64,000 bases of DNA, from contig OX597842.1 of NCBI GenBank assembly GCA_951406725.2, positions 18,724,001 through 18,788,000 of the forward strand, in the 5' to 3' direction. The DNA comes from Octopus vulgaris (lineage: Eukaryota). The notes under the pieces were generated by a model. That model was given only the letters and a program-made list of their open reading frames with translations. It searched no databases and was not told the origin of the DNA. This document shows positions 5,995-64,000 of the stretch, piece by piece. The translations under genes were made by a program, and so were the position numbers. How positions within the stretch are numbered: position 1 is the first letter of the stretch; every line of letters starts with the position of its first letter.

Positions 5995-6289
5995 TAGATA
6001 TGTTACAAAACTTGACAGAGATTGCAATTTAAATACAAAATATGATAATATATACAACACACAGATTATATAGTTTCGCAATAAAGCTAATATAATCCTT
6101 TCCACTACAGAAACACTATGAAATTTTTCTGGATGGGAGAGTTAGTTACATTGACCGCAGCACTTCAGTAATACGTATTTCATTGACCCCGAAAGAAGGA
6201 AGGGCAAAGTTGAACTCAATGAAATTTGAACCCATAACGTACAGACTAACGACATGGCGCAAAGCATTTTGTCCAGCGTGCTAATCATA

Positions 6290-8348
6290 CCTATTTCTTT
6301 ACTACCCCCAAGGGGCTACACACAGAGAGGACAAACAAGGACAGACAAAGGGATTAAGTCGATTATATCGACCCCAGTGCGTAATTGGTACTTATTTAAT
6401 CGACCCCGAAAGGATGAAAGGCAAAGTCGACCTCGGAGGAATTTGAACTCAAAACATAGCGGCAGACGAAATACCTATTTCTTTACTACGCCCAAGGGGC
6501 TACACACAAAGAGGACAAACAAGGACAGACAAAGGGATTAAGTCGATTATATCGACCCCAGTGCGTAATTGGTACTTATTTAATCGACCCCGAAAGGATG
6601 AAAGGCAAAGTCGACCTCGGCGGAATTTGAACTCAAAACATAGCGGCAGACGAAATACCTCTTTCTTTACTACCCCCAAGGGGCTACACACAGAGAGGAC
6701 CAACAAGGACAGACAAAGGGATTAAGTCGATTATATCGACCCCAGTGCGTAATTGGTACTTATTTAATCGACCCCGAAAGGATGAAAGGCAAAGTCGACC
6801 TCGGCGGAATTTGAACTCAAAACATAGCGGCAGACGAAATACCTATTTCTTTACTACCCACAAGGGGCTAAACACAGAGAGGACAAACAAGGACAAACAA
6901 AGGGATTAAGTCGATAATATCGACCCCAGTGCGTAACTGGTAGTTTTTTAATCGACCCCGAAAGGATGAAAGGCAAAGTCGACCTCGGCGGAATTTGAAC
7001 TCAGAACGTAGCGGCAGACGAAATACCTATTTCTTTACTACCCATAAGGGGCTAAACACAGAGAGGACCAACAAGGACAAACAAAGGGATTAAGTCGATT
7101 ATATCGATCCCAGTGCGTAACTGGTACTTATTTAATCGACCCCGAAAGGATAAAAGGCAAAGTCGACCCTGGCGGAATTTGAACTCAGAACATAGCGGCA
7201 GACGAAATACCTATTTCTTTACTACCCCCAAGGGGCTACACACAGAGAGGACCAACAAGGACAGACAAAGGGATTAAGTCGATTATATCGACCCCAGTGC
7301 GTAATTGGTACTTATTTAATCGACCCCGAAAGGATGAAAGGCAAAGTCGACCTCGGCGGAATTTGAACTCAAAACATAGCGGCAGACGAAATACCTATTT
7401 CTTTACTACCCACAAGGGGCTAAACACAGAGAGGACAAACAAGGACAAACAAAGGGATTAAGTCGATAATATCGACCCCAGTGCGTAACTGGTAGTTTTT
7501 TAATCGACCCCGAAAGGATGAAAGGCAAAGTCGACCTCGGCGGAATTTGAACTCAGAACGTAGCGGCAGACGAAATACCTATTTCTTTACTACCCATAAG
7601 GGGCTAAACACAGAGAGGACAAACAAGGACAAACAAAGGGATTAAGTCGATTATATCGATCCCAGTGCGTAACTGGTACTTATTTAATCGACCCCGAAAG
7701 GATAAAAGGCAAAGTCGACCCTGGCGGAATTTGAACTCAGAACATAGCGGCAGACGAAATACCTATTTCTTTACTACCCACAAGGGGCTAAACACAGAGA
7801 GGACAAACAAGGACAAACAAAGGGATTAAGTCGATAATATCGACCCCAGTGCGTAACTGGTAGTTTTTTAATCGACCCCGAAAGGATGAAAGGCAAAGTC
7901 GACCTCGGCGGAATTTGAACTCAAAACATAGCGGCAGACGAAATACCTATTTCTTTACTACCCATAAGGGGCTAAACACAGAGAGGACAAACAAGGACAA
8001 ACAAAGGGATTAAGTCGATTATATCGATCCCAGTGCGTAACTGGTACTTATTTAATCGACCCCGAAAGGATAAAAGGCAAAGTCGACCCTGGCGGAATTT
8101 GAACTCAGAACATAGCGGCAGACGAAATACCTCTTTCTTTACTACCCACAAGGGGCTAAACACAGAGGGGACAAACAAGGACAAACAAAGGGATTAAGTC
8201 GATTATATCGACCCCAGTGCGTAACTGGTATTTATTTAATCGACCCCGAAAGGATAAAAGGCAAAGTCGACCTCGGCGGAATTTGAACTCAGAACGTAGC
8301 CAAGAATTTCGCCCGGCGTGGTAACGTTTCTGCCAGCTCGCCGCCTTA
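6290..8348 (-). repeat. Tandem array of ~11 SINE body units (181 bp) with a single head at the right end
   Basis: Same unit as 2307-2928; diagnostic variants alternate along the array. Confidence 0.9.
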
Positions 8349-9322: not shown

Positions 9323-9389
<67 letters not shown>

Positions 9390-11990
9390 CATATATATAC
9401 ATATATACGACAGGCTTCTTTCAGTTTCTGTCTACCAAATCCACTCACAAGGCATTGGTCGGCCCGAGGCTATAGCAGAAGACACTTGCCCAAGATGCCA
9501 CGCAGTGGGACTGAACCCGGAACAATGTGGTTGGTTAGCAAGCTACTTACCACACAGCCACTCCTACACCTATATATATATATATATATACGACGGGCTT
9601 CTTTCAGTTTCTGTCAACCAAATCCACTCACAAGGCATTGGTCGGCCCAAGGCTATAGTAGAAGACACTTGCCCAAGATGCCACGCAGTGGGACTGAACC
9701 CGGAACCATGTGGCTGGTTAGCAAGCTACTTACCACACAGCCACTCCTACACCTATATATATATATATATATATACGACGGGCTTCTTTCAGTTTCTGCC
9801 AACCAAATCCACTCACAAGGCATTGGTCGGCCCGAGGCTATAGCAGAAGACACTTGCCCAAGATGCCACGCAGTGGGACTGAACCCGGAACCATGTGGTT
9901 GGTTAGCAAGCTACTTACCACACAACCACTCCTACACCTATATATATATATACATATATACGACAGGCTTCTTTCAGTTTCTGTCTACCAAATCCACTCA
10001 CAAGGCATTGGTCGGCCCGAGGCTATAGCAGAAGACACTTGCCCAAGATGCCACGCAGTGGGACTGAACCGGGAACCATGTGGTTGGTTAGCAAGCTACT
10101 TACCACACAACCACTCCTACGCCTATATATATATATACATATATACGACAGGCTTCTTTCAGTTTCTGTCTACCAAATCCACTCACAAGGCATTGGTCGG
10201 CCCGAGGCTATAGCAGAAGACACTTGCCCAAGATGCCACGCAGTGGGACTGAACCCGGAACCATGTGGTTGGTTAGCAAGCTACTTACCACACAACCACT
10301 CCTGCGCCTATATATATATATATATATACATATATACGACAGGCTTCTTTCAGTTTCTGTCTACCAAATCCACTCACAAGGCATTGGTCGGCCCGGGGCT
10401 ATAGCAGAAGACACTTGCCCAAGATGCCACGCAGTGGGACTGAACCCGGAACCATGTGGTTGGTTAGCAAGCTACTTACCACAGCCACTCCTACGCCTAT
10501 ATATATATATACATATATACGACAGGCTTCTTTCAGTTTCCGACTACCAAATCCACTCACAAGGCATTGGTCGGCCCGAGGCTATAGCAGAAGACACTTG
10601 CCCAAGATGCCACGCAGTGGGACTGAACCCGGAACCATGTGGTTGGTTAGCAAGCTACTTACCACACAGCCACTCCTACGCCTATATATATATATACATA
10701 TATACGACAGGCTTCTTTCAGTTTCCGTCTACCAAATCCACTCACAAGGCATTGGTCGGCCCGAGGCTATAGCAGAAGACACTTGCCCAAGATGCCACGC
10801 AGTGGGACTGAACCCGGACCCATGTGGTAGTTAACAAGCTACTTACCACACAGCCACTCCTACACCTATATATATATATACATATATACGACAGGCTTCT
10901 TTCAGTTTCCGCCTACCAAATCCACTCACAAGGCATTGGTCGGCCCGAGGCTATAGCAGAAGACACTTGCCCAAGATGCCACGCAGTGGGACTGAACCCG
11001 GAACCATGTGGTTGGTTAGCAAGCTACTTACCACACAACCACTCCTACGCCTATATATATATATACATATATACGACAGGCTTCTTTCAGTTTCTGTCTA
11101 CCAAATCCACTCACAAGGCATTGGTCGGCCCGAGGCTATAGCAGAAGACACTTGCCCAAGATGCCACGCAGTGGGACTGAACCCGGAACCATGTGGTTGG
11201 TTAGCAAGCTACTTACCACACAACCACTCCTGCGCCTATATATATATATATATATACATATATACGACAGGCTTCTTTCAGTTTCTGTCTACCAAATCCA
11301 CTCACAAGGCATTGGTCGGCCCGGGGCTATAGCAGAAGACACTTGCCCAAGATGCCACGCAGTGGGACTGAACCCGGAACCATGTGGTTGGTTAGCAAGC
11401 TACTTACACACAGCCACTCCTACGCCTATATATATATATACATATATACGACAGGCTTCTTTCAGTTTCCGACTACCAAATCCACTCACAAGGCATTGGT
11501 CGGCCCGAGGCTATAGCAGAAGACACTTGCCCAAGATGCCACGCAGTGGGACTGAACCCGGAACCATGTGGTTGGTTAGCAAGCTACTTACCACACAGCC
11601 ACTCCTACGCCTATATATATATATACATATATACGACAGGCTTCTTTCAGTTTCCGTCTACCAAATCCACTCACAAGGCATTGGTCGGCCCGAGGCTATA
11701 GCAGAAGACACTTGCCCAAGATGCCACGCAGTGGACTGAACCCGGAACCATGTGGTTGGTTAGCAAGCTACTTACCACACAACCACTCCTGCGCCTATAT
11801 ATATATATATATATATACATATATACGACAGGCTTCTTTCAGTTTCCGTCTACCAAATCCACTCACAAGGCATTGGTCGGCCCGAGGCTATAGCAGAAGA
11901 CACTTGCCCATGGTGCCACGCAGTGGGACTGAACCCGGAACCATGTGGTTGGTAAACAAGCTACTTACCACACAGCCACTCCTGTGCCTA
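9097..11990 (-). repeat. Long SINE whose 5' half (~185 bp plus (TA)n) is tandemly amplified 14 times
   Basis: Units begin acgac(a/g)ggcttctttcag from ~9406 to ~11825; single 3' half with (GAGTAAAA)n tail at 9097-9330. Confidence 0.9.
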
Positions 11991-12200
11991 TTAGGTTGAA
12001 AATTCATTTTAATAGGAAAAGTCGAAAGCTTTCCTATCAAAAAGGGTTTTTCATTTTACTATTTATGTGATTCGAAATCATTTCACTTCATGTTCTGTTA
12101 AAAATTTGTAAAAATGTTTATGATGTCGATAGCATTCAGTAGTAGAAGTATTTTTCTTTTATTTACCAATTTCTGTTGTTCTTTCATTTTCCTCCGCCAG

Positions 12201-22440: not shown

Positions 22441-22847
22441 CTCTTTTACTCTTTTACTTGTTTCAGTCATTTGACTGCGGCCATGTTGGAGCACCGCCTT
22501 TAGTCGAGCAAATCGACCCCGGGACTTATTCATTGTAAGCCCAGTACTTATTCTATCGGTCTCTTTTTGCTAAGTGACGGCGACGTAAACACACCAGCAT
22601 CGGTTGTCAAGCAATGCTAAAGGGACAAACACAGACACACAAACATATACACACACATACATATATATATATACATATATACGACAGGCTTCTTTCAGTT
22701 TCCGTCTACCAAATCCACTCACAAGGCTTTGGTCGGCCCGAGGCTATAGTAGAAGACACTTGGCCAAGATGCCACGCAGTGGGACTGAACCCGGAACCAT
22801 GTGGTTGGTAGGCAAGCTACTTACCACGCAGCCACTCCTGCGCCTAT
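22441..22847 (-). mobile_element. Long SINE with CR1/L2-like tail
   Basis: Reverse complement of the family at 20248. Confidence 0.8.
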
Positions 22848-23597
22848 TGTCTCATTTTCGTAAAAATATGCTTAGCAGTCCATGCTCTGTAAGTGCAAAT
22901 CCCTCATTGTGAAAGAAAGTCTACTAAACAGATTTCATCCAGTAAGAGAGCCCATGTTGTGGCTCTTTCCAAATTATTTCCAATATTTCTATTGATATTA
23001 CATTTAATCTTTCCGTTGTTCGTTCTTACATTCTTTCATTTGACCAGTGAGAGTGCGTCGCTAAGTGGTTAGGTTACTTGGCTCAAGATTGTAAATTCGG
23101 CTATTCAAGAGTTTGGACCTGGAGGTCTCCATTTCCAGCGACTTCGAGGGCCACCTCCCAGTGGTGTCGGGCGTCAACGAAAAGCCCTCGACTACAACAA
23201 GACGACGAAAGTTTTTTTTCCTAAGTCTGGGGTCTCTCGCCCCTAAGTCCTAGACCATCACCTAATAACACTTACCCGTCTTGTTGCTTAACAACAACAA
23301 CAACAACAACAAATTCTAAATTCGTGAGGTCGACGTCGTCAGGAAGACTCTTTATTCCATATTGTCCCCTTCCGCTCAGCTGGCAAAACCGAATGCTACT
23401 TTTACTTTAGAAGGGCCAGCTTTGCCACATTCTGTTCACGTTAAGGGTACCTGTGTCTCTGGAGTCCTCATCCACTTGCATCTTAATTTCACGATCAGGC
23501 TGTTCCGTTCACCGAATCAGCTAGAAGGTGAACCAGTTTTCATTTGATAATGATTAACTGTCTCAGAAATACCAAGAAATGAGTGATAATAATATGA

Positions 23598-31290: not shown

Positions 31291-31570
31291 AACGGGAAGC
31301 TGTATGAAAATAAACAAAAGACGAAGGCAGGTTTACGGAAATAAACAAAAGACGAAGGCAGGTGGAATACAAACAAACAATTGTATTAGTATGGCGCTCA
31401 GGAATATAAATAAAACAAGTCTTTTACGTTTCGAGCCTACGCTCTTCAACAGAAAGATACACAGAAAAGAAACACGGAGAGAAACAAGGAGAGAAAAAAA
31501 TGCGTGCAGAAGCTAGCGAATCAACATGGCGATCTGATTCCGACCAGAAGTCAAAGATCAAACGTGAGAC
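31291..31570 (-). mobile_element. Penelope-like terminal-repeat fragment with minimal hammerhead-like motif (31420-31457)
   Basis: Paralogue of 527-741; tcttt-CTGTTGA...GAAAC-GTA-aaaga. Confidence 0.6.
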
Positions 31571-36285: not shown

Positions 36286-36343
<58 letters not shown>

Positions 36344-36536
36344 TTTACTCTTTTACTTGTTTCAGTCATTTGACTTCGGCCATGCTGGAGCACCGCCTTT
36401 AATCGAGCAACTCGACCCCGGGACTTATTCTTTGTAAGCCCAGTACTTTTTCTATCGGTCTCTTTTGCCGAACCGCTAAGTGACGGGGACATAAACACAC
36501 CAGCATCGGTTGTCAAGGGGGACAAACACAGACACA

Positions 36537-36580
<44 letters not shown>

Positions 36581-36582
36581 CG

Positions 36583-36643
<61 letters not shown>

Positions 36644-36764
36644 ACAATCAAGGAACGGCCATAATAGGCCATTCACCCACTAGAAATAACAGCCAAAAGC
36701 TTTAACCGCAAAATAACATTAATTCCGTAAACCAGGAGAAAATTGAAAAAACATTTACCCTGTA

Positions 36765-36871
36765 ATTTCTTAGACGATGCACCGTTTCATCTACCGTTTA
36801 ATGGTAAACTAACCTGATTAAATTAAATCAAGCCAATCCACCATAGGCCCTTAGACTCATCAGTAAGAAAT
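36765..36871 (-). ncRNA. Type I hammerhead ribozyme (inverted monomer)
   Basis: Reverse complement of the motif at 37270-37376. Confidence 0.88.
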
Positions 36872-37269
36872 AGCCAAGTCGGAACAGATATTTTTCACGA
36901 GGCATTCCTCTTGCTACCTCGGCAATATCTGACCTAAAATTTTCAAATCGTCGCACTCGCGCCAAATTTATCGGCAGCAAATAAATATAAGCCACTGATT
37001 CCATTACGGAACTAACCAGAACATTCATAATTAATCAATATAGGGTGGCAAAAAAATTTTGTAGAATTCTTTTGCCACCAGCGGCCTAGTGGGAAAAAAT
37101 TAAATAGTCATAAACCATTTTTAAGTTAGTTCCGTAATGGAATCAGTGGCTTATATTTATTTGCTGCCGATAAATTTGGCGCGAGTGCGACGATTTGAAA
37201 ATTTTAGGTCAGATATTGCCGAGGTAGCAAGAGGAATGCCTCGTGAAAAATATCTGTTCCGACTTGGCT

Positions 37270-37376
37270 ATTTCTTACTGATGAGTCTAAGGGCCTATGG
37301 TGGATTGGCTTGATTTAATTTAATCAGGTTAGTTTACCATTAAACGGTAGATGAAACGGTGCATCGTCTAAGAAAT
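37270..37376 (+). ncRNA. Type I hammerhead ribozyme, copy 1 (predicted cleavage after GUC at 37368)
   Basis: Stem I atttctta/taagaaat; core CTGATGA (37278-37284); stem II gtcta...tagat with a 19-bp inner helix; GAAA; stem III ACGG-tgca-TCGT; GTC triplet. Confidence 0.9.
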
Positions 37377-37759
37377 TACAGGGTAAATGTTTTTCAATTT
37401 TCTCCTGGTTTACGGAATTAATGTTATTTTGCGGTTAAAGCTTTTGGCTGTTATTTCTAGTGGGTGAATGGCCTATTATGGCCGTTCCTTGATTGTTGAT
37501 GTTGAACTTAAAAATGGTTTATGACTATTTAATTTTTTCCCACTAGGCCGCTGGTGGCAAAAGAATTCTACAAAATTTTTTGCCACCCTATATTGATTAA
37601 TTATGAATGTTCTGGTTAGTTCCGTAATGGAATCAGTGGCTTATATTTATTTGCTGCCGATAAATTTGGCGCGAGTGCGACGATTTGAAAATTTTAGGTC
37701 AGATATTGCCGAGGTAGCAAGAGGAATGCCTCGTGAAAAATATCTGTTCCGACTTGGCT

Positions 37760-37866
37760 ATTTCTTACTGATGAGTCTAAGGGCCTATGGTGGATTGGCT
37801 TGATTTAATTTAATCAGGTTAGTTTACCATTAAACGGTAGATGAAACGGTGCATCGTCTAAGAAAT
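37760..37866 (+). ncRNA. Type I hammerhead ribozyme, copy 2
   Basis: Same motif as copy 1. Confidence 0.9.
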
Positions 37867-38249
37867 TACAGGGTAAATGTTTTTCAATTTTCTCCTGGTT
37901 TACGGAATTAATGTTATTTTGCGGTTAAAGCTTTTGGCTGTTATTTCTAGTGGGTGAATGGCCTTTATGGCCGTTCCTTGATTGTTGATGTTGAACTTAA
38001 AAATGGTTTATGACTATTTAATTTTTTCCCACTAGGCCGCTGGTGGCAAAAGAATTCTACAAAATTTTTTTGCCACCCTATATTGATTAATTATGAATGT
38101 TCTGGTTAGTTCCGTAATGGAATCAGTGGCTTATATTTATTTGCTGCCGATAAATTTGGCGCGAGTGCGACGATTTGAAAATTTTAGGTCAGATATTGCC
38201 GAGGTAGCAAGAGGAATGCCTCGTGAAAAATATCTGTTCCGACTTGGCT

Positions 38250-38356
38250 ATTTCTTACTGATGAGTCTAAGGGCCTATGGTGGATTGGCTTGATTTAATT
38301 TAATCAGGTTAGTTTACCATTAAACGGTAGATGAAACGGTGCATCGTCTAAGAAAT
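38250..38356 (+). ncRNA. Type I hammerhead ribozyme, copy 3
   Basis: Same motif as copy 1. Confidence 0.9.
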
Positions 38357-38740
38357 TACAGGGTAAATGTTTTTCAATTTTCTCCTGGTTTACGGAATTA
38401 ATGTTATTTTGCGGTTAAAGCTTTTGGCTGTTATTTCTAGTGGGTGAATGGCCTTTTATGGCCGTTCCTTGATTGTTGATGTTGAACTTAAAAATGGTTT
38501 ATGACTATTTAATTTTTTCCCACTAGGCCGCTGGTGGCAAAAGAATTCTACAAAATTTTTTTGCCACCCTATATTGATTAATTATGAATGTTCTGGTTAG
38601 TTCCGTAATGGAATCAGTGGCTTATATTTATTTGCTGCCGATAAATTTGGCGCGAGTGCGACGATTTGAAAATTTTAGGTCAGATATTGCCGAGGTAGCA
38701 AGAGGAATGCCTCGTGAAAAATATCTGTTCCGACTTGGCT

Positions 38741-38847
38741 ATTTCTTACTGATGAGTCTAAGGGCCTATGGTGGATTGGCTTGATTTAATTTAATCAGGT
38801 TAGTTTACCATTAAACGGTAGATGAAACGGTGCATCGTCTAAGAAAT
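38741..38847 (+). ncRNA. Type I hammerhead ribozyme, copy 4
   Basis: Same motif as copy 1. Confidence 0.9.
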
Positions 38848-57650: not shown

Positions 57651-60600
57651 TCTCCTCTCCTTTCCCTCCGCCTTTCTCTCCCCTTTACACCGTCCGGAGA
57701 GAAAGGCGGAGGGAAAGGAGAGGAGAAAAAGCATCATGGTAGTGTGTACAATTTCCGTGGAACTATTTGTGGCGGTCATGAATCATATCACGAAAGTGAG
57801 AGAGAAAGAGAGAGAGAGGGGGACGGTGAGAAGGGGAGAGAAAGGCGGAGGGAAAGGAGAGGAGAAAAAGCATCATGGTAGTGTGTACAATTTCCGTGGA
57901 GCTATTTGTGGCGGTCATGAATCATATCACGAAAGTGAGAGAGAAAGAGAGAGAGAGGGGGACGGTGAGAAGGGGAGAGAAAGGCGGAGGGAAAGGAAAG
58001 GAGAAAAAGCATCATGGTAGTGTGGTACAATTTCCGTGGAGCTATTTGTGGCGGTCATGAATCATATCACGAAAGTGAGAGAGAAAGAGAGGGAGAGGTG
58101 GGGACGGTGAGAAGGGGAGAGAAAGGCGGAGGGAACGGATAGGAGAAAAAGCATCATGGTTGTGTGTACAATTTCCGTGGAGCTATTTGTGGCGGTCATG
58201 AATCATATCACGAAAGTGAGAGAGAAAGACAGAGAGAGGGGGGGACGGTGAGAAGGGGAGAGAAAGGCGGAGGGAAAGGAGAGGAGAAAAAGCATCATGG
58301 TAGTGTGTACAATTTCCGTGGAGAGAGGAAAGGAAGGGAGAAAAAGCATCATGGTAGTGTGTACAATTTCCGTGGAGCTATTTGTGGCGGTCATGAATCA
58401 TATCACGAAAGTGAGAGAGAAAGAGAGGGAGAGGTGGGGACGGTGAGAAGGGGAGAGAAAGGCGGAGGGAACGGATAGGAGAAAAAGCATCATGGTTGTG
58501 TGTACAATTTCCGTGGAGCTATTTGTGGCGGTCATGAATCATATCACGAAAGTGAGAGAGAAAGACAGAGAGAGGGGGACGGTGAGAAGGGGAGAGAAAG
58601 GCGGAGGGAAAGGAGAGGAGAAAAAGCATCATGGTAGTGTGTACAATTTCCGTGGAGAGAGGGGGGACGGTGAGAAGGGGAGAGAAAGGCGGAGGGAAAG
58701 GAGATCAGAAAAAGCATCATGGTAGTGTGTACAATTTCCGTGGAGCTATTTGTGGCGGTCATGAACCTACTTCTAGAAGTGAGAAGGAAGCAGAGGAGAG
58801 ATCCAGAAAACTAATGAAAACGCAAGCAAAAATTCGAGTATGCAGAGCGTTCCTTGACGACGTAACAGTTATGCCTCAATCAACTGAAGGGACGCGGCTG
58901 ACAATGAGCTGGCTGTAGAAGAAGGCCACGTTGTCACACCTGAAAGAGAAAGAGAGGGGGGACGGTGAGAAAGGGAGAGAAAGGCGGAGGGAAAGGAGAG
59001 GAGAAAAAGCATCATGGTAGTGTGTACAATTTCCGTGGAGCTATTTGTGGCGGTCATGAATCATATCACGAAAGTGAGAGAGAAAGAGAGGGCGAGGTGG
59101 GGATTGTGAGAAGGGGAGAGAAAGGCGGAGGGAAAGGAGAGGAGAAAAAGCATCATGGTAGTGTGTACAATTTCCGTGGAACTATTTGTGGCGGTCATGA
59201 ATCATATCACGAAAGTGAGAGAGAAAGAGAGAGAGGGGGACGGTGAGAAGGGGAGAAAGGCGGAGGGAAGGAGAGGAGAAAAAGCATCATGGTAGTGTGT
59301 ACAATTCCGTGGAGCTATTTGTGGCGGTCATGAATCATATCACGAAAGTGAGAGAGAAAGAGAGAGAGAGGGGGACGGTGAGAAGGGAGAGAGGCGAGGA
59401 GGAAAGGAAAGGAGAAAAAGCATCATGGTAGTGTGTACAATTTCCGTGGAGCTATTTGTGCGGTCATGAATCATATCACGAAAGTGAGAGAGAAAGAGAG
59501 GGAGAGGTGGGGACGGTGAGAAGGGGAGAGAAGGCGGAGGGAACGGATAGGAGAAAAAGCATCATGGTTGTGTGTACAATTTCCGTGGAGCTATTTGTGG
59601 CGGTCATGAATCATATCACGAAAGTGAGAGAGAAAGACTTCGTGATATGATTCATGACCGCCACAAATAGCTCCACGAAAATTGTACACACTACCATGAT
59701 GCTTTTTCTCCTCCCTCCTTTCCCTCCGCCTTTCTCTCCCCTTCTCACCGTCCCCCTCTCTCTCTCTTTCTCTCTCACTTTCGTGATATGATTCATGACC
59801 ACCACAAATAGCTCCACGGAAATTGTACACACTACCATGATGCTTTTTCTCCTCTCCTTTCCCTCCGCCTTTCTCTCCCCTTCTCACCGTCCCCCCTCTC
59901 TACCTCTCTTTCTCTCTCACTTTCGTGATATGATTCATGACCGCCACAAATAGCTCCACGGAAATTGTACACACTACCATGATGCTTTTTCTCCTCTCCT
60001 TTCCCTCCGCCTTTCTCTCCCCTTCTCACCGTCCCTCTCCCTCCCTCTCTTTCTCTCTCACTTTCGTGATATGATTCATGACCGCCACAAATACCTCCAC
60101 GGAAATTGTACACACTACCATGATGATTTTCTCCTCTCCTTTCCCTCCGCCTTTCTCTCCCCTTCTCACCGTCCCCCTCTCTCTCTCTCTTTCTCTCTCA
60201 CTTTCGTGATATGATTCATGACCGCCACAAATAGCTCCACGGAAATTGTACACACTACCATGATGCTTTTTCTCCTCTCCTTTCCCTCCGCCTTTCTCTC
60301 CCTTTCTCACCGTCCCCCTCTCTCTTTCTCTCTCACTTTCGTGATATGATTCATGACCGCCACAAATAGCTCCACGGAAATTGTACACACTACCATGATG
60401 CTTTTCTCCTCTCCTTTCCCTCCGCCTTTCTCTCCCCTTCTCACCGTCCCCTCTCTCTCTCTCTTTCTCTCTCACTTTCGTGATATGATTCATGACCGCC
60501 ACAACTAGCTCCACGGAAATTGTACACACTACCTTGATGCTTTTTCTCCTCTCCTTTCCCTCCGCCTTTCTCTCCCCTTCTCACCGTCCCCCGTTTCTCT

Positions 60601-63600
60601 CTCTTTCTCTCTCACTTTTGTGATATGATTCATGACCGCCACAAATAGCTCCACGGAAATTGTACACACTACCATGATGCTTTTTCTCCTCTCCTTTTCC
60701 CTCCGCCTTTCTCTCCCCTTCTCACCGTCCCCCTCTCTCTGTCTTTCTCTCTCACTTTCGTGATATGATTCATGACAGACACAAATAGCTCCACGGAAAT
60801 TGTACACACAACCATGATGCTTTTTCTCCTATCCGTTCCCTCCGCCTTTCTCTCCCCTTCTCACCGTCCCCAACTCTCCCTCTCTTTCTCTCTCACTTTC
60901 GTGATATGATTCATGACCGCCACAAATAGCTCCACGGAAATTGTACACACTACCATGATGCTTTTTCTCCTCTCCTTTCCCTCCGCCTTTCTCTCCCCTT
61001 CTCACCGTCCCCCCTCTCTCTGTCTTTCTCTCTCACTTTCGTGATATGATTCATGACCGCCACAAATAGCTCCACGGAAATTGTACACACAACCATGATG
61101 CTTTTTCTCCTATCCGTTCCCTCCGCCTTTCTCTCCCTTCTCACCGTCCCCAACTCTCCCTCTCTTTCTCTCTCACTTTCGTGATATGATTCATGACCGC
61201 CACAAATAGCTCCACGGAAATTGTACACACTACCATGATGCTTTTTCTCCTCTCCTTTCCCTCCGCCTTTCTCTCCCCTTCTCACCGTCCCCCCTCTCTC
61301 TGTCTTTCTCTCTCACTTTCGTGATATGATTCATGACCGCCACAAATAGCTCCACGGAAATTGTACACACAACCATGATGCTTTTTCTCCTATCCGTTCC
61401 CTCCGCCTTTCTCTCCCCTTCTCACCGTCCCCACCTCTCCCTCTCTTTCTCTCTCACTTTCGTGATATGATTCATGACCGCCACAAATAGCTCCACGGAA
61501 ATTGTACACACTACCATGATGCTTTTTCTCCTTTCCTTTCCCTCCGCCTTTCTCTCCCCTTCTCACCGTCCCCCTCTCTCTCTCTTTCTCTCTCACTTTC
61601 GTGATATGATTCATGACCGCCACAAATAACTCCACGGAAATTGTACACACTACCATGATGCTTTTTCTCCTCTCCTTTCCCTCCGCCTTTCTCTCCCCTT
61701 CTCACAATCCCCACCTCGCCCTCTCTTTCTCTCTCACTTTCGTGATATGATTCATGACCGCCACAAATAGCTCCACGGAAATTGTACACACTACCATGAT
61801 GCTTTTTCTCCTCTCCTTTCCCTCCGCCTTTTTCTCTCCTTCTCACCGTCCCCCCTCTCTCTCTCTTTCTCTCTCACTTTCGTGATATGATTCATGACAG
61901 CCACAAATAGCTCCACGGAAATTGTACACACTACCATGATGCTTTTTCTCCTCTCCTTTCCCTCCGCTTATCTCTCCCCTTCTCACCGTCCCCCCTCTCT
62001 CTCTCTTTCTCTCTCACTTTCGTGATATGATTCATGACCGCCACAAATAGCTCCACGGAAATTGTACACACTACCATGATGCTTTTTCTCCTCTCCTTTC
62101 CCTCCGCCTTTCTCTCCCCTTCTCACCGTCCCCCTCTCTCTCTCTCTTTCTCTCTCACTTTCGTGATATGATTCATGACCGCCACAAATAGCTCCACGGT
62201 AATTGTACACACTACCATGATGCTTTTTCTCCTCTCCTTTACCTCCGCCGTTCTCTCCCCTTTTCACCGTCCCCCCTCTCTCTCTCTTTCTCTCTCACTT
62301 TCGTGATATGATTCATGACCGCCACAAATAGCTCCACGGAAATTGTACACACTACCATGATGCTTTTTCTTCTCTCCTTTCCCTCCGCCTTTCTCTCCCC
62401 TTTTCACCGTCCCCCTCTCTCACTCTTTCTCTCTCACTTTCGTGCTATGATTCATGACCGCCACAAATAGCTCCACGGAAATTGTACACACTACCATGAT
62501 GCTTTTTCTCCTCTCCTTTCCCTCCGCATTTCTCTCCCCTTCTCACCGTCCCCCTCTCTCTCTCTTTCTCTCTCACTTTCGTGATATGATTCATGACCGC
62601 CACAAATAGCTCCACGGAAATTGTTCACACTACCATGATGCTTTTTCTCCTCTCCTTTCCCTCCGCCTTTCTCTCCCCTTCTCACAGTCCCTCTCTCTCT
62701 CTCTCTTTCTCTCTCACTTTCGTGATATGATTCATGACCGCCACAAATAGCTCCACGGAAATTGTACACACTACCATTATGGTTTTTCTCCTCTCCTTTC
62801 CCTCCGCCTTTCTCTCCCCTTCTCACCATCCCCTCTCTCTCTCTCTTTCTCTCTCACATTCGTGATATGATTCATGACCGCCACAAATAGCTCCACGGAA
62901 ATTGTACACGCTACCATGATGCTTTTTCTCCTCTCCTTTCCCTCTGCCTTTCTCTCCCCTTCTCACCATCCCCCCTCTCCCTGTCTTTCTCTCTCACTTT
63001 CGTGATATGATTCATGACCGCCACAAATAGTTCCACGGAAATTGTACACACAACCATGATGCTTTTTCTCCTCTCCTTTCCCTCCGACTTCCTCTCCCCT
63101 TCTCACCGTCGCTCCTCTCTCTCTCTTTCTCCCTTACTTTCGTGATATGATTCATGACCGCCACAAATAGTTCCACGGAAATTGTACACACTACCATGAT
63201 GCTTTTTCTCCTCTCCTTTCCCTCCGCCTTTCTCTCCCCTTCTCACCGTCCCCACCTCTCCCTCTCTTTCTCTCTCACTTTCGTGATATGATTCATGACC
63301 TCCACAAATAGCTCCACGGAAATTGTACACACTACCATGATGCTTTTTCTCCTCTCCTTTCCCTCCGCCTTTCTCTCCCCTTCTCACCGCCCCCTCTCTC
63401 TCTCTTTCTCTCTCACTTTCGTGATATGATTTATGACCGCCACAAATAGCTCCACGGAAATTGTACACACTAGCATGATGCTTTTTCTCCTCTCCTTTCC
63501 CTCCGCCTTTCTCTCCCCTTCTCACCGTCCCCCCTCTCTCTCTTTCTCTCTCACTTTCGTGATATGATTCATGACCGCCACAAATAGTTCCACGGAAATT

Positions 63601-64000
63601 GTACACACTACCATGATGCTTTTTCTCCTCTCCTTTCCCTCCGCCTTTCTCTCCCCTTCTCACCGTCCCCACTTCTCCCTCTCTTTCTCTCTCACTTTCG
63701 TGATGTGATTCATGACCGCCACAAATAGCTCCACGGAAATTGTACACACTACCATGATGCTTTTTCTCCTCTCCTTTCCCTCCGCCTTTCTCTCCCCTTC
63801 TCACCGTCCCCACCTCTCCCTCTCTTTCTCTTTCACTTTCGTGATATGATTCATGACCGCCACAAATAGCTCCACGGAAATTGTACACACTACCATGATG
63901 CTTTTTCTCCTCTCCTTTCCCTCCGCCTTTCTCTCCCCTTCACACCGTCCACTCTCTCTCTCTCTTTCTCTCTCACTTTCGTGATATGATTCATGACCGC
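57594..64000. repeat. ~140-bp satellite (LINE RT fragment plus GA-rich tract), >40 units, orientation switches at ~57690 and ~59638; runs off the window
   Basis: Unit gcatcatggtagtgtgtacaatttccgtggagctatttgtggcggtcatgaatcatatcacgaaagtgagagag...ggagaaaaa. Confidence 0.93.

Follow-up and report, generated by a model that had tools for sequence, protein, structure and literature searches.

Anatomy of the locus

The window (the whole 64,000-nt stretch of Octopus vulgaris DNA that was analyzed) contains a tandem array of 491-nt units that lies between two (TA)n tracts within a SINE and consists of a short inverted arm joined head-to-head to a long forward arm. The features are listed in Table 1, and monomer positions are numbered so that position 1 is window position 37125. 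The inverted arm covers 487 of the 491 monomer positions, with one inserted T, and the forward arm comprises seven full units (490–491 nt) plus 481 nt, all sharing 99.4–100% identity. The original prediction for this DNA described the locus correctly: the array does split the SINE at an internal tract, here (CA)(TA), both halves being alignable to an intact copy at 22443–22900; the left part (36640–37127) is a single reversed monomer short by 4 nt; the GTT at 37125–37127 fits both arms; the forward run (37125–41039) is eight monomers less 10 nt; and neither end of the array coincides with the ribozyme cut, which is predicted after monomer position 244. In the forward arm the predicted cuts fall at window positions 37368, 37858 and so on to 40802, and the array ends at none of these.

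Table 1. Features of the retrozyme array and its target in the window
Feature	Position	Strand	Basis or remark
Host SINE, 3' part (positions 1-219 of intact copy plus expanded CA tract)	36342..36600	-	blastn against intact copy 22443-22900, 87% identity; target context
Left (TA)n target tract	36600..36641		overlaps first AT of inverted arm
Inverted arm, monomer 381-491 then 1-376	36640..37127	-	outer 3' end at site A (376), tail-less
Predicted type I hammerhead, inverted arm	36765..36871	-	alignment; predicted cut between 36773 and 36772
GTT overlap, head-to-head joint of both arms	37125..37127		
Forward arm, 7.97 units of 491-nt monomer	37125..41039	+	outer 3' end at site B (481)
Predicted type I hammerhead, unit 1 (present in all 8 forward units)	37270..37376	+	sequence, pair counts; predicted cut after 37368
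Structured 3' module (one unit), with closing stem and hairpins preceding A (38971) and B (39076)	38930..39076	+	fold z = -4.7, pair counts
Terminal 105-nt "tail", monomer 377-481	40935..41039	+	outer end of forward arm only
Right (TA)n target tract	41037..41068		
Split SINE, short continuation to position 265, then (TC)n(TA)n	41068..41094	-	SINE head missing

Relative to the intact copy, SINE positions 1–219 are found to the left of the insert (36342–36558) and positions 215–265 to its right (41044–41094), where only about 27 nt of the continuation is non-repetitive. SINE positions 266–405 were not found near the insert. Of the 118 loci where this SINE is split, three (the window, L056 and L090) have SINE coordinates that continue without a gap from one side of the insert to the other, and inside a (TA)n tract a TSD is undefinable. 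The array is one real, young insertion of a dispersed, hammerhead-bearing, non-coding repeat, i.e., a non-LTR retrozyme.

Other tandem arrays are present in the window, two of them made of SINE-derived units. One of these, at 6287–8300, has about 11 units of 184 nt and belongs to another common repeat; a second, at 9387–11991, has 14 units of 185 nt and matches the head half of the SINE; and a 140/141-nt satellite array extends from 57696 to 64000 and continues past the window end.

The predicted ribozyme and the structured 3' module

Each unit specifies a stem I, the CUGAUGA core, a long stem II, GAAA, a short stem III with a near-palindromic loop, and GUC. Rfam, searched at the gathering threshold, gave no match within the 64-kb window. 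In the minimum free energy structure, which is stable (z = -4.2), the core is base-paired, so the catalytic fold is not the one of lowest energy. Pair counts were made over 15 copies drawn from the monomer family and a sister family of about 73% identity, all of which are related sequences and hence not independent. The hammerhead helices were paired in 95.5% of cells, with 21 two-sided changes, a result above all 500 shuffles and all slid controls, and the helices of the 3' module were paired in 97.3%. The counts across the two related families thus support, short of proof, the predicted hammerhead. With tandem, non-coding units of a few hundred nucleotides, each bearing a predicted type I hammerhead, the array has the make-up of a non-LTR retrozyme.

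The two positions at which arms end, sites A and B (see below), resemble one another. Both end in AT, both lie 13–17 nt after a GC-rich hairpin, and they have nine of their last 12 nt in common. In the sister family this end-site motif is well kept at B and less well at A.

The motif TTTGGCGCG at about monomer 50–61 (window 37174–37185) is also kept in the sister family; it is a possible internal promoter element and resembles an E2F site. Contigs from four public runs, tentatively taken to be of RNA, cover the whole monomer, and in two of these runs a single-copy control is missing that is present in another; this hints at expression at most, and a circle junction would be indistinguishable in such contigs from the genomic tandem.

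Dispersal of the family and its two end sites

A search of the 2.8-Gb genome with the monomer gave 1041 candidates, and the 40 that were scored yielded 216 matches, which are spread over many chromosomes. Some thousand young insertions, usually two-armed, make up the family, a repeat that encodes no protein and carries a predicted self-cutting RNA. At about 120 other loci the outer ends of the arms are 3' ends that fall at two fixed monomer sites 105 nt apart, near position 376 (A) and near position 481 (B). Exact junctions with TA number 668 for site A and 922 for site B genome-wide, and reversed controls gave none. A (TA)4 run lay within 30 nt on both sides in 35/40 and 53/59 loci, the second set being anchored on one TA junction, against a background of 8.9%.

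Three locus sets were used to determine how the two ends are combined. The first was 39 loci from the monomer-search matches, and here 24 of 40 had one A and one B end, 11 were single-armed and five atypical. The second was 60 of 66 chromosome-1 loci anchored on the junction of position 481 with TA; an opposite A arm was present in 43 of the 60, 12 were single, four atypical and one without a match, and none had a B arm as partner. The third consisted of 20 stretches containing the first 21 of the 36 chromosome-1 matches to position 376 joined to TA that lack an exact partner, and in this A-anchored set 14 of 20 had a B arm, four were single and two disrupted, again with no partner of the same type. 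Leaving out complex loci and L034, L070 and L063, there were 85 simple two-arm junctions, of which 77 were A+B and eight had one atypical end, with no A+A and no B+B. In the exact-pattern lists for chromosome 1, likewise, all 21 outward pairs were heterotypic. The sister family retains both sites, and 12 of its 27 distinct loci are two-armed, all 12 of the A+B type. Sister retrozyme families (L201–L230) have units of 472–475 nt and gave 1828 candidates.

This is the main signature, overlooked by the original prediction: each insertion has one A end and one B end. The proposal that an inverted segment and TA targeting are a Penelope-like footprint is supported, and the findings that would have spoken against it, i.e., identical ends with TIRs or LTRs, or a family confined to one locus, were not made, the family being dispersed and without TIR or LTR. 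The length of the inverted arms is variable, and these arms do not constitute TIRs. The "permuted ends" do not survive, since the outer ends are fixed at A and B and only the inner 5' ends vary. Two features of Penelope-like element (PLE) insertions are present, namely an inverted, 5'-truncated copy adjoining a direct copy, and a one-sided tail between two fixed 3' ends, which was seen in 77/77 typed junctions and is 105 nt long rather than 30–40.

Joints, arm lengths and 5' ends

Among 77 joints between arms, 31 had a microhomology of 1–6 nt, four a longer one, 13 were blunt and 29 had insertions. The 3-nt microhomology noticed in the window represents one common type of joint and not a rule. 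The near-integer copy number, which had been read as evidence of a circular template, is not a family trait: of 115 arms of at least 300 nt, nine were within 15 nt of an integer, with 7.3 expected (p = 0.30), so that the two near-integer arms of the window are probably a coincidence.

The inner 5' ends are clustered. Forty of 189 fall at monomer 245–272, just past the predicted cut, where 15.6 are expected, and these stops are concentrated in the first pass over the unit (28/158, against 8/123 later; p = 0.006). A first-pass stop within 243–285 occurred in both arms at 12 of 76 loci, in one arm only at six and in neither at 58 (p = 5e-9), and in L051 both arms end exactly at 245. Exact stops at 243–247 made up 4 of the 189 5' ends, without significant enrichment. 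Stops at site A were not enriched either (7 against 4.7 expected), and those at site B were marginal (12 against 6.8, p = 0.04 uncorrected). An AT-rich joining hotspot could contribute to the cluster of 5' ends. In 16 of 85 joints the 5' ends of the two arms lie within 12 nt of each other in monomer phase (4.3 expected), and outside the cut cluster this holds for 9/56 (p = 0.002). Arm lengths are correlated (rho 0.57, n = 76). In 25 of 76 loci the A arm is the longer one, the difference reaching 2.4 kb; short A arms are without the tail that B carries. The clustered and coupled stops fit a ribozyme-cut linear monomer that was copied twice.

One RNA template or several

With L113 and L078 left out as complex, 23 haplotypes were found among 64 loci. 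Between the two arms of a locus, 8 of 968 diagnostic sites were discordant (62 loci), compared with 41% when pairs were shuffled. At positions covered at least three times, 26 rare variants were fixed in all units of a locus, 19 were partial and 171 single, and minority calls within a locus amounted to 26/5129. The window offers an example in 486G, which is found in the seven forward units covering that position and in the inverted arm (all eight) and at no other locus examined. This homogeneity of the units, together with the uninterrupted passage of long arms over the cut site (see below), implies that the lineage went through a monomer bottleneck at some point. It is likely that both arms derive from one RNA, given their shared haplotype and their joint stops just past the predicted ribozyme cut, although a single dominant source locus, or gene conversion, could also have produced the shared haplotype.

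Not all loci follow this pattern. Patterned variants differ between the arms in a few loci (L031, L078, L098, L099 and L185), so two templates or later conversion do occur. Variants alternate among units with period 2 in L032, L064, L069, L078, L118 and L185, unit differences are block-wise in L035, L051, L093 and L196, and an 18-unit arm in L034 has a variant period of about 3. Alternation and blocks call for dimer circles, read-through multimers or later local duplication, and the arms with period 2 or 3 may reflect dimer or trimer circles or else local duplication of a higher order. In long arms the cut site is crossed seamlessly, no deletion opening at any position from 238 to 246 in about 250 crossings each. 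The templates look mixed, with cleaved linear monomers on the one hand and multi-round templates (circle or read-through multimer) on the other.

As to the kinds of substitution, 16 A>G and 15 T>C are present among 80 variants fixed in a locus, compared with 13 and 17 among 228 singletons. An A-to-I editing signature was considered and set aside as not clean, both transitions being raised without sense-strand bias. Among the singletons, G>A (50/228) outnumbers C>T (25) in raw counts uncorrected for base composition.

Candidate helper elements

A tblastn search with PLE-A, described next, found no coding match in the window, and the retrozyme, having no RT and GIY-YIG ORF of its own, is non-autonomous. 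Two families from the same genome are candidates for supplying the enzyme. PLE-A came from a GIY-YIG search, in which 150 of 6136 candidates were scored, and is a young family with many open frames of 781 aa, a CX4CX2C linker and a C-terminal endonuclease; in Pfam, GIY-YIG was above its cut-off and RVT_1, at 28.9 bits, just under its cut-off of 29.6. By the linker motif, as set out in the available text of PMC8557442, PLE-A would be of the Neptune or Nematis type. PLE-B came from a protein search and is a very abundant young family (L231–L260; 23455 first-look candidates), with open frames up to 811–859 aa, TA targeting and a tail of about 42 nt. The two families serve as positive controls: each of them has two sites, some 40 nt apart, at which copies end in (TA)n, and one of each was present in 7/7 two-ended loci seen (PLE-A, L143, L166 and L168; PLE-B, L232, L243, L250 and L257). 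The retrozyme shares with PLE-A and PLE-B a grammar of two sites and one end of each, but its tail is 105 nt instead of their roughly 40 nt. That the helper class is PLE is well supported.

The original prediction had suggested looking for an autonomous PLE that shares the hammerhead. An autonomous PLE sharing sequence with the monomer was not found in 80 PLE-containing stretches of roughly ten families, where blastn with the monomer gave no match attributable to a PLE terminus. The same method detected no similarity of the monomer to PLE-A or PLE-B and no pLTR homologue. No chimeric PLE-retrozyme arm was seen in the loci examined; two apparent chimeras (L180 and L206/L231) proved to be separate, neighboring insertions.

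Some further features of these elements may be recorded. In the PLE-A copy at L161:930–6172, a 359-aa frame lies upstream of the 781-aa RT/GIY-YIG frame. The pLTR of PLE-A has a variant hammerhead-like motif, and its 3' region carries repeated TGACGTC and ATTGG motifs and a 40-nt tail. A different, abundant TA-flanked repeat occupies window positions 41448–41800, and its minus strand has a minimal hammerhead-like motif at about 41545–41585. Further copies occur at 526–735, at 31326–31544 and at many other loci (27 blastn rows), and the repeat resembles a Penelope terminus.

Proposed mechanism and alternatives

We consider it likely that the insertions were made by a Penelope-like RT/GIY-YIG protein acting in trans, with a single RNA on which each of the two cut target strands primed, one at either site. 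From the observed dispersal, TA target, fixed A and B ends, presence of one of each, shared haplotype and coupled stops, we infer the following course. The protein, probably a dimer, would nick both strands of a (TA)n tract, and one target 3' end would prime at A and the other at B. Each RT would then copy toward the 5' end of the RNA, the B copy displacing the A copy. If the template were a ribozyme-cut monomer, both copies would run off near position 245, and if it were a circle or an uncleaved multimer, copying would continue for several units. The rarity of exact stops at 243–247 means that run-off would have to be followed by trimming. Finally, the 3' ends of the cDNAs would be joined by short microhomology, bluntly or with a small insertion, and fill-in would give the inverted pair. 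At the locus in the window, copying would have ended slightly short of one round in the A arm and slightly short of eight in the B arm.

A bolder reading, which we put forward tentatively and with some doubt, is that PLE integration may be an obligately asymmetric two-site reaction, in which a dimeric RT uses two hairpin-marked starts on a single RNA, one per target strand, and overlapping stretches are copied with strand displacement. The retrozyme would then have rebuilt the module by structure alone, with a 105-nt spacing and without helper sequence, and ribozyme cutting or the closure of monomer or dimer circles would set the array length.

The alternative implied by the original prediction, that every insertion results from reverse transcription round a monomeric RNA circle and so has permuted starts and stops and near-integer arrays, seems to us unlikely. 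The seamless passage over the cut site in multi-unit arms and the 26 locus-private variants fixed in all units, with so few minority calls, are what such a template would give, and PMC7229834 reports that circular forms of animal retrozymes build up in coral, mussel and axolotl. Against this, the start points are fixed, there is no enrichment of near-integer lengths, the first pass has an excess of paired stops beside the cut, and period-2 or block-wise unit differences are impossible from a single monomer circle unless rearranged later. A circular template is thus possible on these other grounds, but the argument originally given for it fails, and part of the family points to linear, ribozyme-cut RNA. 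Array length would say nothing of the template if PLEs made short two-armed insertions that became multimers only later, via local unequal exchange or slippage. Higher-order variant patterns in long arrays such as L034 are in keeping with this, and post-insertion local amplification is proposed in the available text of bioRxiv 10.64898/2026.07.22.740005; even so, in young loci (98–100% identity) each of the two arms already comprises 2–8 units and has a non-integer inner end, the lengths of the arms are correlated, and the expansion must start from at least one full unit plus overlap, all of which makes it an improbable account.

Slightly more improbable again, and disfavored in its simple form, is the fold-back of a single target-primed cDNA that primes itself, making the inverted arm a second strand. 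It would directly explain the shared haplotype, self-priming has been suggested for head-to-head PLE repeats (PMC3846280, available text), and it predicts the in-phase inner ends found in 16/85 joints, including the 9/56 outside the cut cluster, as does a shared RNA 5' end. Fold-back requires nested arms, however, and A is longer than B in a third of loci (25/76), with short A arms that lack the tail; 69 of 85 joints are out of phase; and a fixed, TA-joined end at a second site is left unexplained. An assembly artefact or a one-off local duplication has a negligible chance of being correct: the units are near-identical, and the count of eight may accordingly be imprecise, but more than 900 loci have the same junctions, and contigs of separate public runs, which break at the TA tracts, pass from the monomer into (TA)n at 38971 (A) and at 39071–39076 (B). 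Priming from both strands by a PLE protein in trans remains our preferred reading, although the greater length of the tail, the failure to find a sequence-sharing autonomous PLE in the 80 stretches and the in vitro behavior of Poseidon (see below) count against it.

Comparison with known systems

A literature search of openly accessible main texts found no account of a cephalopod retrozyme or of obligate pairing of ends. Metazoan non-LTR retrozymes were described by Cervera and de la Pena 2020 (PMC7229834) as low-GC, tandem, non-coding units with one type I hammerhead each and no LTR, PBS or PPT; the paper considers PLEs to be possible helpers and proposes that a circle gives rise to tandem cDNA. 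The units reported there are 150–450 nt, compared with 491 nt here, and the fixed two-site ends and inverted arms of the octopus family are absent from that text, in which the words "inverted", "microsatellite", "octopus" and "cephalopod" do not occur. More recently, Li, Clavereau and Pollet 2026 (bioRxiv 10.64898/2026.07.22.740005) interpreted animal retrozymes as non-autonomous PLE derivatives, and our conclusion that PLEs mobilize retrozymes is the same. Until now this had rested on co-occurrence and pLTR similarity, the latter in 24/57 Xenopus families, whereas here it comes from the insertion footprint, without a pLTR homologue; the main text of that study, as available, samples no mollusc and does not analyze insertion ends.

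EN+ PLE insertions are described in the available texts of PMC8557442 and PMC3846280 as partial tandems with an inverted, 5'-truncated copy, a one-sided tail of 30–40 bp and a (TA)n bias, and non-autonomous, multicopy, head-to-tail elements of Chlamys are mentioned in the same literature. The octopus array is alike in architecture and target but has no ORF, and its tail is 105 nt long and structured. In those texts the tail is optional or often one-sided, and here it is one-sided in 77/77 typed junctions. How tandem and inverted PLE insertions with a one-sided tail are built is called unresolved in PMC8557442 (available text). In vitro, purified Poseidon PLE from Anolis carolinensis cleaves and extends both strands, acts on AT-rich targets and has two internal RT starts bounding a tail, and a dimer is predicted (Frangieh et al. 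2024, PMC11167929); start-site use did not differ between strands, and hammerhead cleavage was dispensable. Here, in contrast, A and B occur in one-to-one pairs, and 5' ends accumulate next to the predicted cut.

In LINE-1 twin priming, a single RNA is primed by both ends of the target, and joining of the cDNAs by microhomology gives an inversion; the arms copy adjacent, non-overlapping parts of the RNA, and the second start is variable. The octopus arms differ in that they overlap and the second start is fixed, with only 9/95 B arms beginning near site A.

The element class and the helper class were already known. What is new is that A and B are strictly paired, that the tail is long and structured, and that there are signs of one RNA, sometimes cut at the predicted ribozyme site, behind both arms. 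About a thousand young insertions of one 491-nt RNA provide a quantitative footprint of A+B pairing, shared template and coupled stops, by which both questions, the building of such PLE insertions and the mobilization of animal retrozymes, become a small in vitro problem whose components are a defined RNA, target DNA with (TA)n and the two candidate enzymes that this genome offers.
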